Source of the DNA: Shigella phage sb2
Length of the DNA: 64,000 nt
Sequence record: PQ666540
Direction: 5' to 3' (one strand)
Positions 17,472 to 21,590 of the stretch are shown one piece after another (position 1 is the first letter of the stretch; the number at the start of each line of letters is the position of its first letter). A program made the translations under genes and the position numbers. The notes under the pieces were generated by a model, which saw nothing but the letters and a program-made list of their open reading frames with translations, was not told the DNA's origin and ran no database searches.

Positions 17472-17616
17472 CCCAAGCTGGAGGTTTAAAGTCTAAATCA
17501 TCACAACCATGAATCTTTCCACGCATTTCCAGATCGTCTTCTTCACCAGCCATAATAATTTTAATTAGACTGGAATTACTTGAAGCTGCAATATCTTCTA
17601 ATAGACGCTTTTTCAT
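17320..17616 (-). CDS. Zn-ribbon protein
   Basis: 98 aa with CPECG ... CRHCKHKF. Confidence 0.5.
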
Positions 17617-18542
17617 TTCAATACCTCAATAGCATTACGTAAACCATTTGCTTTTGCATTAAGAGCTTTTAACAATTTGGTGTGTTCGGCAATCTGGGCT
17701 TCAACTTCAATTAAACGAGCATTGAGATATTCACGTTCTTCGCTCAGGTTATCAACCTTTTCTACTTTAGGCTCTTTTACAACTGTCTTATATGTATTAG
17801 GGTTCTTCAGTTTAATTAGAATGCGTGAACTGTATAACATTGAACCATTATCTTCGGTTTCGTCATACATTTCTACTACGTCCATGATTTTTAACATCAT
17901 GCGGAGTTTATAAGACAACGAACGAATAGTTTTGTTGTGCTTATTAATTTCTCTAGAGTTCATGGTGCCGAGATTACGTGAGTAATAATAAGGAACCTGG
18001 ATATTAATTAACACTGATGAACCACCTGGCTTATGTGTTACTTCATCAGCAATAACCCAGTCCTTAACATGAACTGTATTTGTACGGTCATCACCAGCGG
18101 TAAATAGTTTGCGAGCATGCTTAAAAAGCATATTCACTTGGGTATTGAATTGACAAGCAAATTTATCAGCAAATTTAGTTTCAGGAATGGTAGATAACCA
18201 ATCAGCCAAATGGGTCTTTTTAACATCGTTAACAATAGTAAATTCAACCAAATCGGTTATAGATGTCGTAGATTTAATGAAGCTCGGCTTCATAAAGTTT
18301 TTAATGTTATCGCGAGCTACAGTAGAAGATAACATACGAGAACGTTTAAACCATTCAAGCAAATTGCCTAATGAATGAGAATAGGCGTTCTGAGTATCTT
18401 TACAGATATGATTTTCCTGGCCAATATATTGAAGGAAATCACGAAGAATATTATTGATTACTGCTCTGTGTCCGATCTGATAATTACGGTGTTTAGCAAT
18501 AAGGCTGTCAAAATAATCAATATAATGTTTACGAGTTTTCAT
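17613..18542 (-). CDS. hypothetical protein, paralog family member (C-terminal coiled coil)
   Basis: 309 aa, N-terminus MKTRKHY, C-terminal heptad segment; resembles the three upstream ORFs. Confidence 0.6.
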   Translation of the reverse strand: MKTRKHYIDYFDSLIAKHRNYQIGHRAVINNILRDFLQYIGQENHICKDTQNAYSHSLGNLLEWFKRSRMLSSTVARDNIKNFMKPSFIKSTTSITDLVEFTIVNDVKKTHLADWLSTIPETKFADKFACQFNTQVNMLFKHARKLFTAGDDRTNTVHVKDWVIADEVTHKPGGSSVLINIQVPYYYSRNLGTMNSREINKHNKTIRSLSYKLRMMLKIMDVVEMYDETEDNGSMLYSSRILIKLKNPNTYKTVVKEPKVEKVDNLSEEREYLNARLIEVEAQIAEHTKLLKALNAKANGLRNAIEVLK

Positions 18543-18594
18543 GTTCTTCTCACTTGGTTAATGATTTATACTCCGAGCCATCCTTGGCTTTAAA

Positions 18595-19647
18595 TTACTT
18601 AATTAACTGTAAAGCTTGTTCAAGACGATCCAGGCGATTAACAGATTCTTCCCAAATCCTTTTAGCCTGCTCATATTCTTTCTGGGCTTTATTAGAAATT
18701 TCTAGAGCTTCTTTATAAGCTTTTTCTAGTGCAATAACTTCTGGACGAATTTCTACCGGTTCAGGCGAATCGTCAAGATTATCCATTAGTTCCTCAAGGG
18801 TAGTTTCTTCTTTAGGAGTATTCACAATTTCATCACATTTTTGTTGGTAAATTTCTTTATCAGTCGGTGAGTACGCACACTTTACTTCACGGAGACTAAC
18901 TACAATTTTATATCCTTCCCAACCGCACATATTCTTAAAAGGATAAGTATGAATATTTTCTACTGTTTCCATACAAAGTAATGCAGTCTCTAACTGACGA
19001 GTTATATCGCTAGCAATTGAGAAAAATTTATTAATGTTCTTTTGATTAGCTTCTGGTGTAAAAAATTCATAATTCACAAAAATAGCTACTTTATTTTTAT
19101 CAAGTTCATATTCTTTTACGATAATCATATCAGAAGCCCAAGGATGAATTTGACGATAATCGCCATAGCATAATTTAGAAGCGGATTTTATAAGTTGCTT
19201 CTTGAAAAGTCTGAAATTACTAACCCAACGACGAGTAAAAATATTCTCAGGGTCTTCTTTATTATTAAGATGATAAGAATTAACATCACCGAACCAATTA
19301 TATCCTACTACATTTTTAGTTCGTTTAATTTCTTTCCCAAAATTACCAAGAATATCCCGATTAACCAAATATGAAAGAAGACGAGACCTTTTAAAGGTTT
19401 TCTTAATATCATCTTTATCTACGCGGCTAGAAATTTTACGAACTTCATGAATAAATTTACTCGAAGAAACAATACTTGCATCAATACTATTGAGCCATTG
19501 ATTGATAATAGAAATAACACTATTCTGACCAAACACGGGTTTAACTTTATCATCAATAACGCTATTGAATGATTTGATATATTCGTTACGAGTCATAATA
19601 ATCTCCTCAGTAGAAAGTAAGAACATTATACCACATCCTTGTAGCAA
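18595..19647 (-). CDS. hypothetical protein, paralog family member (likely start MTRNEY, ~19596)
   Basis: 350-aa ORF; FKKQLIKSASKL motif; C-terminal coiled coil. Confidence 0.6.
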   Translation of the reverse strand: MLQGCGIMFLLSTEEIIMTRNEYIKSFNSVIDDKVKPVFGQNSVISIINQWLNSIDASIVSSSKFIHEVRKISSRVDKDDIKKTFKRSRLLSYLVNRDILGNFGKEIKRTKNVVGYNWFGDVNSYHLNNKEDPENIFTRRWVSNFRLFKKQLIKSASKLCYGDYRQIHPWASDMIIVKEYELDKNKVAIFVNYEFFTPEANQKNINKFFSIASDITRQLETALLCMETVENIHTYPFKNMCGWEGYKIVVSLREVKCAYSPTDKEIYQQKCDEIVNTPKEETTLEELMDNLDDSPEPVEIRPEVIALEKAYKEALEISNKAQKEYEQAKRIWEESVNRLDRLEQALQLIK

Positions 19648-19653
19648 AGTAAA

Positions 19654-20676
19654 CTAGTTTAGTGCATTTAGTGCATTGTTCAGTTTAGAACGTTGCTTCG
19701 TGAGATTTTGAACTCTTGATTGTGCTTTTTCTAGCATCTTTTCAGCTTCTAATACTTCATTAGTTGCTTTAACGAGTTCATCATCTACTGCCTTGATAGA
19801 CTTCTCAATCGCATCCGCATGCCATTTTTCAACAGGTTTAAGACTCGGATTTTCAATAGGAAGAAAATTCGCTTTATTGAATTTCCATGCATCCTTATTA
19901 CCTGAACTATACATCCAAAATTTAGGATCGTTTGATGAGTAATTGGATAAATTTAAGTTATCTTGCACTTCCTGCTTTTTCTCTTGTGGGACTTCGTCCT
20001 TTCTCAAAAAATCGTATTTAAATGAAACGATCATATCAAGTTCATACGTTGTTGTATGCAATTTAAATCGCTCAAAACGAGGTAAAATCTTAGACTGAAC
20101 AGCGGCAACAACATCCATATACTTAAATGCTTCTGTCAACTGCGATTTAAGGCATTCGCAAATTGAAAGAGAATTTTTTGTATTAGGTTTAAAGCTAATT
20201 CGTGCAGTTCTGTTATTTTCTTTTAATGGTCTTACTTCCATCTGAAGAGTATAACCATCAAATTTCAGGTTCTTTAAGTTAATGTCAGAACCTTTTAATC
20301 GACTCGCAATTGATAAAATTTGCTTTAATTGTTTACGGAATAGAGCAATAAATCTCCATTCAATACGATAATGGTTTGGATTGAAAAATCCAGATGATAA
20401 ATCGACCTTACTTTGACCAACGCCTTGAACAAATAGAGGATTTTTATAATCAATAGTTTTACAGAAATCAGTGAGCTGCTCACGAGCCGTCATTTGTGTA
20501 ATATACCCTGCTTTACTAAAATTACGTATCCATTCACTGCTATTTGTATACTTAAAGTGATGAATAACATGATTAACTTTATCAGGGTCTAAATTATTTT
20601 CACACAAAAATGTCATAACATCACGAGTATAGCTGGCATTACGAACCATATCTTCAATTTGAGAACGAGTTTTCAT
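19654..20676 (-). CDS. hypothetical protein, paralog family member
   Basis: 340 aa, N-terminus MKTRSQIED, FRKQLKQILSIASRL motif, C-terminal coiled coil. Confidence 0.6.
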   Translation of the reverse strand: MKTRSQIEDMVRNASYTRDVMTFLCENNLDPDKVNHVIHHFKYTNSSEWIRNFSKAGYITQMTAREQLTDFCKTIDYKNPLFVQGVGQSKVDLSSGFFNPNHYRIEWRFIALFRKQLKQILSIASRLKGSDINLKNLKFDGYTLQMEVRPLKENNRTARISFKPNTKNSLSICECLKSQLTEAFKYMDVVAAVQSKILPRFERFKLHTTTYELDMIVSFKYDFLRKDEVPQEKKQEVQDNLNLSNYSSNDPKFWMYSSGNKDAWKFNKANFLPIENPSLKPVEKWHADAIEKSIKAVDDELVKATNEVLEAEKMLEKAQSRVQNLTKQRSKLNNALNALN

Positions 20677-20684
20677 GGTATTCC

Positions 20685-21590
20685 TTAAGATTTAAGTAAA
20701 TCGACGATTTTAATTAACTTTTCACGCTCAGATTTAGCTTTACTACTCAATCCAGATAGTCTGAAAATTTCATCGTCATATTGTTGAATAGAAATATTCA
20801 GCTCTTCAATCTGTTTATTAAAATAATCAATTTGTTCAGAATGTTTTTCGTTACTACGAACTGGTACAGGTTTCGTAGGCAATGTAGTTGAACTGGATTC
20901 ATCCGGGCGATAAATTAAAATACAACTTGAACCAATAGGACATTTTGCCCCAGATGAATATTCTAATGTTCCAGCTTCTTTTAAAACTTCAAAAGCTAAA
21001 CAGAGATGATGACCCATATTAACATAATCTGTAGAGTGAGCTCTGATGTAATAATCATCTCCACGAATACTAAATTTAAAGCATTTAAGGTCTTCTGTAT
21101 TATTGGTCTTAAAAATCATTTGTTTATCTAGACCTTTAGCTAATCGAGCGCCTAATGCTAATAATCGTCTTTGATTTTCCCACAAATCCGCAATCATTTG
21201 ATCGAATGATAATTTTGGCATTAGTCGACAATAAAGGTCATATCCTTTATTATAATTACGAAGGATTTCACTCGCGTTAATACGAGACAATGCTCCAATT
21301 TTATTAAGGGCTTTCATAATGCGATTAGATAAACTCATTCCAGATCCGTTTGTTCGCTGTAAATGTTTTTCTAATCCAAATCCAATATCAACTTTAAACT
21401 TATCTAAAATTTCAGCATGAACATCTCTGTCGATAACATTCAAATCCAAAGTTGGGTTAAATCTATGAAAAAATTTATCTGGCTCTCCACGACGAAATAC
21501 AGTCCATTCATTCATCATTTTTTTATTAACTAAAGATTTAATTACTGCATTGACATTATTAATTACTACTGACATATTTTCCTCACTCAA
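20685..21590 (-). CDS. hypothetical protein, probable distant paralog with C-terminal coiled coil
   Basis: 301 aa, C-terminal heptad segment. Confidence 0.55.
   Translation of the reverse strand: MSEENMSVVINNVNAVIKSLVNKKMMNEWTVFRRGEPDKFFHRFNPTLDLNVIDRDVHAEILDKFKVDIGFGLEKHLQRTNGSGMSLSNRIMKALNKIGALSRINASEILRNYNKGYDLYCRLMPKLSFDQMIADLWENQRRLLALGARLAKGLDKQMIFKTNNTEDLKCFKFSIRGDDYYIRAHSTDYVNMGHHLCLAFEVLKEAGTLEYSSGAKCPIGSSCILIYRPDESSSTTLPTKPVPVRSNEKHSEQIDYFNKQIEELNISIQQYDDEIFRLSGLSSKAKSEREKLIKIVDLLKS

Follow-up and report, generated by a model that had tools for sequence, protein, structure and literature searches.

The nrdC.3–nrdC.6 locus

We analyzed a tandem gene array at positions 17613–21590 of a 64,000-nucleotide (nt) stretch of DNA from Shigella phage sb2 (sequence record PQ666540; hereinafter the window, to which all coordinates refer unless another record is named). 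According to the list of open reading frames (ORFs), the array consists of four successive ORFs, all on the minus strand, that encode proteins of 296–340 amino acids (aa) and are separated by spacers of 52 nt (A/B), 57 nt (B/C) and 8 nt (C/D). A preliminary description of this DNA, made from the sequence alone, reported here four consecutive ORFs of similar architecture that were suspected to be tandem paralogues, and both proposals are borne out by the present analysis. The four genes are orthologues, in this phage, of nrdC.3, nrdC.4, nrdC.5 and nrdC.6 of bacteriophage T4, and they are ancient, strongly diverged tandem paralogues that belong to a single superfamily:

17613..18542, minus strand: ORF A, orthologue of T4 nrdC.3 (Y04O), 309 aa, PF26897 / phrog_1435
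18595..19596, minus strand: ORF B, orthologue of T4 nrdC.4 (Y04P), 333 aa from ATG (MTRNEY), same family as A
19654..20676, minus strand: ORF C, orthologue of T4 nrdC.5, 340 aa, Pfam DUF7235 (PF23882)
20685..21575, minus strand: ORF D, orthologue of T4 nrdC.6, 296 aa from ATG (MSVV), PF26899 / phrog_2257

The starts of B and D were set at ATG codons; the mechanically called ORFs extend to TTG codons at 19647 (B) and 21590 (D). Three of the four proteins share the previously noted N-terminal signature MKTR or MTR, namely A (MKTRKH), B (MTRNEY) and C (MKTRSQ).

The gene names are taken from the annotated loci of phages ime09 and T4, which are colinear with the window, and the comparison with the T4 nrdC.x genes that the preliminary description proposed yields one-to-one orthologues. 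Protein identity to T4 is 60.6% for A, 91.6% for B, 95.6% for C (over 340 aa) and 97.3% for D. ORF A is 97% identical to nrdC.3 of ime09, ORF D is 97–98% identical to nrdC.6 of ime09, C40 and T4, and the DNA of the array is 96–97% identical to many Tequatrovirus genomes. In PHROGs, full-length matches connect both A and B with phrog_1435 (E 5e-116 and E 8e-169, respectively), C matches phrog_2351, and D matches phrog_2257 (E 3e-151). In Pfam, residues 1–340 of C align with positions 1–307 of the 307-position profile PF23882 (E 4.6e-127; 424 bits, the cut-off being 30), homologues of B at 86–94% identity are labelled PF26897 ('Phage_T4_Y04OP'), and homologues of D at 43–98% identity are labelled PF26899; the A1 profile recovers a T4-type NrdC.3 (P0227) with E 1.5e-45. 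Hence A and B belong to the PF26897 family, C to PF23882 and D to PF26899. ORF C shares with T4 NrdC.5 (Y05A) both the position between nrdC.4 and nrdC.6 and the full-length PF23882 match, and the two are alleles of one gene. The nrdC.3 allele represented by ORF A is divergent: its identity to T4 is 61%, and its core is nearer to the Mosigvirus versions.

The annotated NrdC.6 of the T4 record NC_000866 is a 275-aa protein that lacks the C-terminal helix. A single-base deletion is present in nrdC.6 of this record at approximately 10060–10080 (approximately 20790 in the window; ctgAatattt is replaced with ctg-atattt), the DNA beyond the deletion is still conserved, and the T4 annotation in the HIDEN-SEQ preprint includes the full 891-nt gene; the frameshift is probably due to an error in the reference or to strain variation.

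The preliminary description located the array directly downstream of nrdC, in a region that varies among T-even phages, and on these points it needs to be corrected. The genes nrdC.1 and nrdC.2 (17070–17616) intervene between nrdC (16805–17068) and the array and, with all genes on the minus strand, the array lies on the upstream side of nrdC relative to transcription. The region is not especially variable either: 462 of the 656 matching phage records hold at least 80% of the 3978 base pairs (bp) of the array at 80–99% identity.

Homology and organization of the four proteins

Pairwise BLASTP among the four ORFs yields nothing significant beyond the match between A and B (27% identity over 226 aa, E 6.5e-10). 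Profile–profile comparison with hhalign recovers the A–B relationship (98.3%, E 2.4e-14) and also aligns B with C (68.7%, E 4.5e-5, 254 colinear columns); D showed no significant match to any single family. The sequence P0056, an in-frame nrdC.5(146–270)::nrdC.3(137–309) chimera that is found on contigs of up to 167 kb, was left out of the C alignment for the reported hhalign results; a strong A–C match (97.8%, E 1e-12) is an artefact of its presence there. When each family was compared with the pooled others, the left-out family was detected in all cases, with E 2.5e-14 for A, 1.1e-13 for B, 4.4e-7 (92.7%) for C and 2.5e-4 (43%) for D, the E values of the reversed-sequence controls being at least 0.07. 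With bridging sequences included, the matches improve to E 3e-11 (97.2%, 236 columns) for C and E 1e-7 (94.3%, 82 columns) for D, and the controls stay at E of at least 0.03. By this test of each family against the pooled others with negative controls, all four families are members of one superfamily.

The bridging sequences come from phages of other genera and from metagenomic data. When the nrdC.3/4 profile was run exhaustively with HMMER against 1.84 billion representatives, only 10 proteins were retrieved, and there was no direct match to nrdC.5 or nrdC.6; among the 10, the metagenomic protein P0233 is similar both to B (96.1%, E 3e-9) and to C (94.7%, E 6e-8, 252 columns). The syntenic gp94 of Yersinia phage fHe-Yen9-01 matches D (E 2.6e-4) and A (E 5.5e-4), and the syntenic gene 38 of Klebsiella phage 311F matches B (E 1e-4). 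In terms of sequence, nrdC.3 and nrdC.4 appear as clear paralogues, nrdC.5 joins them at the profile level, and nrdC.6 is the most distant member, the link of which rests on profiles, on the order of elements in the AlphaFold model and on seven common Foldseek targets. A hidden Markov model (HMM) of the superfamily detected no further member in the window, including 49.2 and nrdC.1. The product of nrdC.8 (22040–22567) also ends in a heptad-like helix, and was rejected as a candidate member, with E 5.3 against the C-terminal HMM and no match to the superfamily HMM.

In a representative alignment, three colinear motifs are present in all four proteins (all on the minus strand):

18294..18350: motif 1 in A, FKRSRMLSSTVARDNIKNF; in B at 19339–19395, in C at 20464–20520, in D at 21252–21308
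18087..18149: motif 2 in A, FNTQVNMLFKHARKLFTAGDD; in B at 19156–19215, in C at 20284–20340, in D at 21126–21182
17871..17918: motif 3 in A, LSYKLRMMLKIMDVVE; in B at 18958–19005, in C at 20104–20151, in D at 20970–21017

Motif 2 is the central motif that the preliminary description noticed in two of the ORFs, as FRKQLKQILSIASRL in C (aa 113–127) and FKKQLIKSASKL in B (aa 131–142); its equivalents are detectable in A and D as well.

AlphaFold2 (AF2) models were obtained for B (from the nrdC.4 family alignment; predicted local distance difference test score, pLDDT, 85; predicted template modeling score, pTM, 0.68) and for D (nrdC.6; pLDDT 77, pTM 0.65). The model of B comprises helices (residues 3–84), three strands (88–110), helices (119–148), a hairpin (158–174), a long helix (185–208), a second hairpin (212–235), helices (246–275), a disordered segment (275–282) and a single helix (285–332). 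The model of D includes helices 124–151, a hairpin (166–179), a helix (187–200), a second hairpin (205–222), a disordered segment (228–242) and helices 243–272 and 278–295. From the helix pair of motif 2 onward, the order of elements is identical in the two models, and the motifs occupy equivalent helices: motif 1 maps to the pair H61-69/H72-84 in B and H82-92/H95-107 in D; motif 2 to H119-130/H132-140/H145-148 and H124-133/H135-145/H148-151, respectively; and motif 3 to the long helix that separates the two β-hairpins (185–208 and 187–200). A Foldseek search of BFVD with both models yielded seven targets in common (probability 0.5–1.0, E 3e-8 to 9e-3), which are uncharacterized proteins of 300–370 aa from T4-like phages of Pectobacterium, Enterobacter, Acinetobacter, Klebsiella, Yersinia and Serratia. 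These observations are supportive of, but not conclusive for, a core fold shared by the four proteins. The predicted plan begins with an N-terminal helical region and an α/β core, with the modelled order helix pair, β-hairpin, long helix, β-hairpin, and continues through a linker that is variable or disordered to an amphipathic heptad helix of 25–50 residues at the C-terminus.

The heptad-rich C-termini, to which the preliminary description drew attention, are indeed present, the best heptad run being C-terminal in each protein (residues 273–308 in A, 283–332 in B, 287–339 in C and 249–273 in D) and coinciding with the long helices in the models of B and D. By a crude heptad score, only C stands clearly above shuffled sequences, with a score of 13 that was reached by 2 of 500 shuffles; the scores of A, B and D were reached by 53–148 of 500. 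The respective segments (all on the minus strand) are:

17616..17753: heptad helix of A, approximately aa 264–308, with the a/d string LLVIHLLALIL
18601..18744: single long helix of B in the AF2 model, aa 285–332, following the disordered segment 275–282
19660..19818: heptad helix of C, aa 287–339, with unbroken 3-4 spacing over 53 residues
20691..20849: helix-break-helix of D in the AF2 model, aa 243–272 and 278–295, with the heptad run at 249–273

The heptad helix of C is almost invariant across the nrdC.5 family. When leave-one-family-out HMMs were built from the last 60 residues alone, the left-out families took ranks between 4 and 45, often behind unrelated ORFs of the window. Because the left-out families do not rank above such unrelated ORFs, the likeness of the tails appears to be that of generic heptad helices, free of a homology signal. 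Given that the three motifs lie in the globular part and that the tails carry no cross-family signal, the evidence of common descent resides in the globular part. Thus, the similarity is not confined to the coiled coil; such confinement is the outcome that the preliminary description had named as refuting its claim of paralogy. On the contrary, the relationship is wider than could be seen at that stage.

An alternative explanation is that only nrdC.3 and nrdC.4 are true paralogues, with nrdC.5 and nrdC.6 being unrelated proteins of comparable size that converged on a C-terminal coiled coil. This possibility is compatible with the restriction of significant BLASTP similarity to A and B, with the absence of significance in the direct hhalign comparisons of B with D and C with D, with the modest HMM-versus-sequence leave-one-out results (E 0.024 for C and 0.077 for D) and with the existence of three separate families in Pfam and PHROGs, but it is difficult to reconcile with the pooled profile–profile matches (for C, E 4e-7 to 3e-11; for D, E 2.5e-4 to 1e-7; reversed controls clean), the bridging of B and C by P0233 across approximately 250 columns, the dual match of fHe-Yen9-01 gp94 to D and A, the common element order and seven common Foldseek targets of the B and D models, and the colinearity of the three motifs in all four proteins. 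We therefore consider independent origins very improbable. Accordingly, PF26897/PF23882/PF26899 and phrog_1435/2351/2257, which the databases keep separate, are merged here into one superfamily.

Distribution, rearrangements and evolutionary rate

The superfamily extends to phages of Acinetobacter, Klebsiella, Yersinia, Pectobacterium and Erwinia. In the Acinetobacter phage Acj61, the Foldseek search of BFVD connects the D model with E5E4A2 (304 aa) and the B model with E5E4A1 (330 aa), and the stretch between nrdC.10 and nrdC of this genome contains a pair of neighbouring genes that match both sizes exactly and follow the T4 order. We equate this gene pair with E5E4A1/E5E4A2 on the basis of the matching lengths and the consecutive accessions; neither of the products, p120 and p121, could be linked to any of the families by sequence, so that the link is structural and syntenic only. 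The presence of a similar adjacent pair in Acj61 implies that the duplication is older than the split between Tevenvirinae and Twarogvirinae.

In Mosigvirus S143_2, the position of the array (2425–5448) is occupied by three genes rather than four, without a counterpart of nrdC.4 there. The products of these genes consist of 331 aa (33% identity to nrdC.6), 319 aa (23% to nrdC.5, E 2e-7) and 316 aa (76% to nrdC.3 of the window), and the family of the 319-aa protein is restricted to 133 Mosigvirus-type records. Natural rearrangements within the array were also detected. In phage ACG-C40, a deletion joins nrdC.5 at approximately codon 68 to nrdC.3 at approximately codon 238 (ACG-C40 5805–6216), and the junctions of this deletion and of the P0056 chimera lie at non-homologous positions of the paralogues.

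The evolutionary rates of these genes were estimated as pairwise, gene-wide ratios of nonsynonymous to synonymous substitutions (dN/dS; Nei-Gojobori) between the window and seven Tequatrovirus genomes:

gp49, nrdC and nrdC.8–nrdC.11 (flanks): 0–0.06
nrdC.3: 0.16–0.30
nrdC.4: 0.17–0.28
nrdC.5: 0.09–0.18
nrdC.6: 0.05–0.14

The proteins encoded by the four genes change several-fold faster than their neighbours. Gene-wide positive selection was not seen, with no pairwise dN/dS value near 1, and the only DNA repeat that a search for a recent duplication turned up is a stretch of 19 nt shared by A and C at their start codons. The duplication under diversifying selection that the preliminary description envisaged is thus not what these data show: gene-wide dN/dS of the array is 0.05–0.30, and the duplication is old.

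The variation within individual genes is unevenly distributed. The nrdC.3 sequences fall into identity classes of roughly 93–99%, 75–79% and approximately 60%. Compared with T4 nrdC.3, ORF A is 85–90% identical in residues 1–60, 30–65% in residues 81–260 and 75–100% in residues 281–309; compared with Mosigvirus S143_2, it is 80–95% identical in the core and only 45–60% at the N-terminus. These opposite patterns of identity in the core and the N-terminus suggest exchange of modules between phage genera, and nrdC.3 accordingly appears to be a mosaic, with cassette-like allele replacement of the α/β core. In nrdC.5, which has a variable linker, residues 56–190 are almost invariant, and variation and indels occur at residues 30–55 and 195–280.

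Known and predicted functions

The functional evidence comes from nrdC.5. Srikant, Guegler and Laub showed that an evolved T4 clone lacking accessory genes was unable to infect ECOR17, that deletion of the host dsr1 gene restored infection (PMC9391042, eLife 2022), and that T4 nrdC.5 supplied in trans restored plating of the deletion mutant on MG1655 carrying ECOR17 dsr1 (PMC9391042). Dsr1 is a SIR2-domain protein with a sensor domain, shared with Avs7, that recognizes the phage major capsid protein (PMC13581612). With 95.6% identity to T4 NrdC.5, ORF C can be predicted to target Dsr1. The anti-defence role that the preliminary description suggested for such genes is therefore backed by experiment for nrdC.5, in its T4 version; for nrdC.3, nrdC.4 and nrdC.6, we infer it from homology, dispensability, location and evolutionary rate. 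The T4 genes nrdC.3–nrdC.6 are non-essential, with transposon insertions tolerated at 96–100% of sites (bioRxiv 10.1101/2025.11.20.689424, supplementary tables), and the literature searched includes no paper on nrdC.3, nrdC.4 or nrdC.6.

The genomic context is consistent with such a role. The orthologues of gp49.2 (16089–16409), which inhibits OLD (PMC13096335), and of nrdC.1 (17070–17312), which inhibits Septu (bioRxiv 10.1101/2025.11.20.689424), are located within 1.5 kb of the array, on its nrdC side, and the alignment with T4 spans both. With these two genes beside the array, the wider region between pin and nrdC.11 has the appearance of an anti-defence island. Two segments of this neighbourhood, 16417–16803 and 15391–15527, have no blastn-level alignment to T4; the first contains, at the position of T4 gene 49.3, two small ORFs (16420–16629 and 16593–16808), and the second is associated with a 58-aa ORF of the window (15343–15519). 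Both look like small variable cassettes within an anti-defence neighbourhood.

Two features of the sequence may bear on transcription (minus strand):

19625..19653: promoter-like site (GTTTAC, 17 nt, TGgTATAAT) in the 57-nt gap upstream of B
24094–24113: strong terminator-like hairpin between nrdC.11 and nrdC.10, 8 bp with 6 G-C, followed by a minus-strand T run

The putative promoter upstream of B matches the consensus at 10 of 12 positions and has the TG extension, the prediction coming from the consensus match alone; between this site and the ATG of ORF B at 19596, a GAGGAG ribosome-binding site can be read from the sequence. Farther along the locus, NrdC.10, a P-loop protein (23032–24000), is far more widely conserved than the array, with tblastn matches in 1311 phage records that include Vibrio, Aeromonas and Acinetobacter phages and the jumbo phages 121Q and Atu_ph07.

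Taken together, these observations are best explained if nrdC.3–nrdC.6 are an ancient array of paralogues that encode oligomeric, stoichiometric inhibitors of host immune proteins, a reading that extends by inference to A, B and D and to which we assign a probability of about 0.6. Each paralogue would be made early in infection; it may oligomerize via the C-terminal helix; and the fast-evolving core and linker would bind and stoichiometrically block one host immune protein. The counterparts in T4 are accessory genes, early or non-essential, within a run of anti-defence genes. In the case of ORF C, the blocked protein would be the SIR2 NADase Dsr1, a prediction from the 95.6% identity to T4 NrdC.5, the activity of which was demonstrated by complementation.

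An enzymatic mode of action, in which an immune protein is chemically modified or a depleted metabolite (NAD+ in the case of Dsr1) is restored, has a precedent in the phage NAD+-reconstitution pathways that defeat DSR1, as cited in a preprint (bioRxiv 10.1101/2025.06.06.658234), and conservation in the nrdC.6 family peaks in a polar patch, NQRRLLALGARLAKGxDKQMxFKTN. However, none of the four proteins matched an enzyme family in Pfam, NCBIfam or PDB sequence searches, and inspection of the representative alignment by eye singled out no residue that is invariant in all four families. These two observations, combined with the segmental variation and with the isolated amphipathic helix that follows a flexible linker, argue against an enzyme, which we accordingly regard as improbable, and fit a binding protein that oligomerizes through its tail and blocks its target stoichiometrically. 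Weak Pfam and NCBIfam matches to PHL, Phage_int_SAM_1, DUF4164, Cas6b_C, XerD and CofH are far below the cut-offs and were discarded, as were the PDB sequence matches, which include only designed helical repeats or APC6 (E > 1e-5) and are compositional.

A different function, that of host-takeover or regulatory factors, for example nucleic-acid-binding proteins, with nrdC.5 affecting Dsr1 indirectly through the timing or amount of the phage trigger, would be in line with the basic character of A, C and D (isoelectric points 9.0–9.5), with the early accessory nature of the T4 counterparts and with the absence of a published NrdC.5–Dsr1 interaction from the literature searched. Residues 30–86 of ORF A (18284–18452), which include motif 1, also show weak similarity to the SAM-like domain at the N-terminus of tyrosine recombinases (E 0.047 in Pfam; E 8.7e-4 for the XerD type in NCBIfam), but both matches fall well short of the curated cut-offs and probably arose by chance. 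We consider this explanation unlikely, albeit less so than an enzymatic one.

Several points weigh against stoichiometric inhibition by the whole array. The functional evidence is confined to nrdC.5 of the four genes, no mechanism of NrdC.5 action against Dsr1 was found in the literature searched, so that the effect could be indirect, and in the HIDEN-SEQ comparison, as far as it is available, none of the four genes has a significant fitness effect (q = 1.0). Oligomerization is suggested solely by the heptad spacing and by isolated long helices in models of monomers, and the heptad scores of A, B and D are not significant relative to shuffles. The sequence link of D spans only 82–84 columns and is strongest when the bridges are included; the Foldseek TM-scores are 0.2–0.5 with large root mean square deviations, and the fold comparison covers the B and D models only. 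Finally, gene-wide dN/dS below 1 fits relaxed constraint equally well.

If the array nevertheless consists of inhibitors of immune proteins, a more specific scenario can be tentatively outlined. It would be a modular anti-immune family that expanded in T4-like phages, with a conserved scaffold (the N-terminal helices and the C-terminal oligomerizing helix) and an exchangeable core cassette, where each copy, and each allele class of nrdC.3, neutralizes a different sensor of the Dsr1/Avs type, and cassette swaps between phage genera retune host range. The variation of the nrdC.3 core cassette and the variable segments of nrdC.5 suggest where the region of target specificity might lie, even though residues 56–190 in the middle of nrdC.5 hardly vary.

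Even in T4, the best studied of the lytic phages, a function has been assigned to only one of these four genes, each of which encodes a protein of about 300 aa, namely the anti-Dsr1 activity of nrdC.5. If all four are indeed copies of one ancient gene, nrdC.3, nrdC.4 and nrdC.6 become concrete anti-defence candidates. The phages of Acinetobacter, Klebsiella, Yersinia, Pectobacterium and Erwinia to which the family extends are of therapeutic interest, some being already in use and others under consideration, and genes of this kind determine which hosts they can infect. The advance is a modest one, in that the genes had been catalogued and the anti-defence role of one member published; the new element is the unification of three database families in one ancient superfamily, which is arranged in tandem in T4-like phages and includes one member with an experimentally validated anti-defence activity.

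With respect to known systems, the array proteins were compared with structural, anti-defence and sirtuin-inhibiting proteins of phages. The scores for the tail terminator or tail completion fold (lambda gpU, SPP1 gp17-like, DUF3168) are weak, with identities at the level of noise, and the nrdC proteins differ from this fold in possessing an additional N-terminal helical region and the C-terminal heptad helix; this likeness is no evidence of common descent. It also seems improbable, to much the same degree as for an enzyme, that the α/β core mimics a phage structural protein and serves as an early decoy that occupies sensors of conserved virion proteins. Like the array, 49.2 and nrdC.1 belong to the same transcription block and are non-essential, narrowly distributed accessory genes; unlike the array proteins, their products are small (106 and 80 aa) and lie outside the superfamily according to the HMM. 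No sequence or fold similarity between the array proteins and DSAD1 was detected. As a working analogy, DSAD1, the reported phage inhibitor of the sirtuin defence protein DSR2, exemplifies a phage protein that disables a SIR2-domain NADase, the type of activity predicted here for NrdC.5 and Dsr1.

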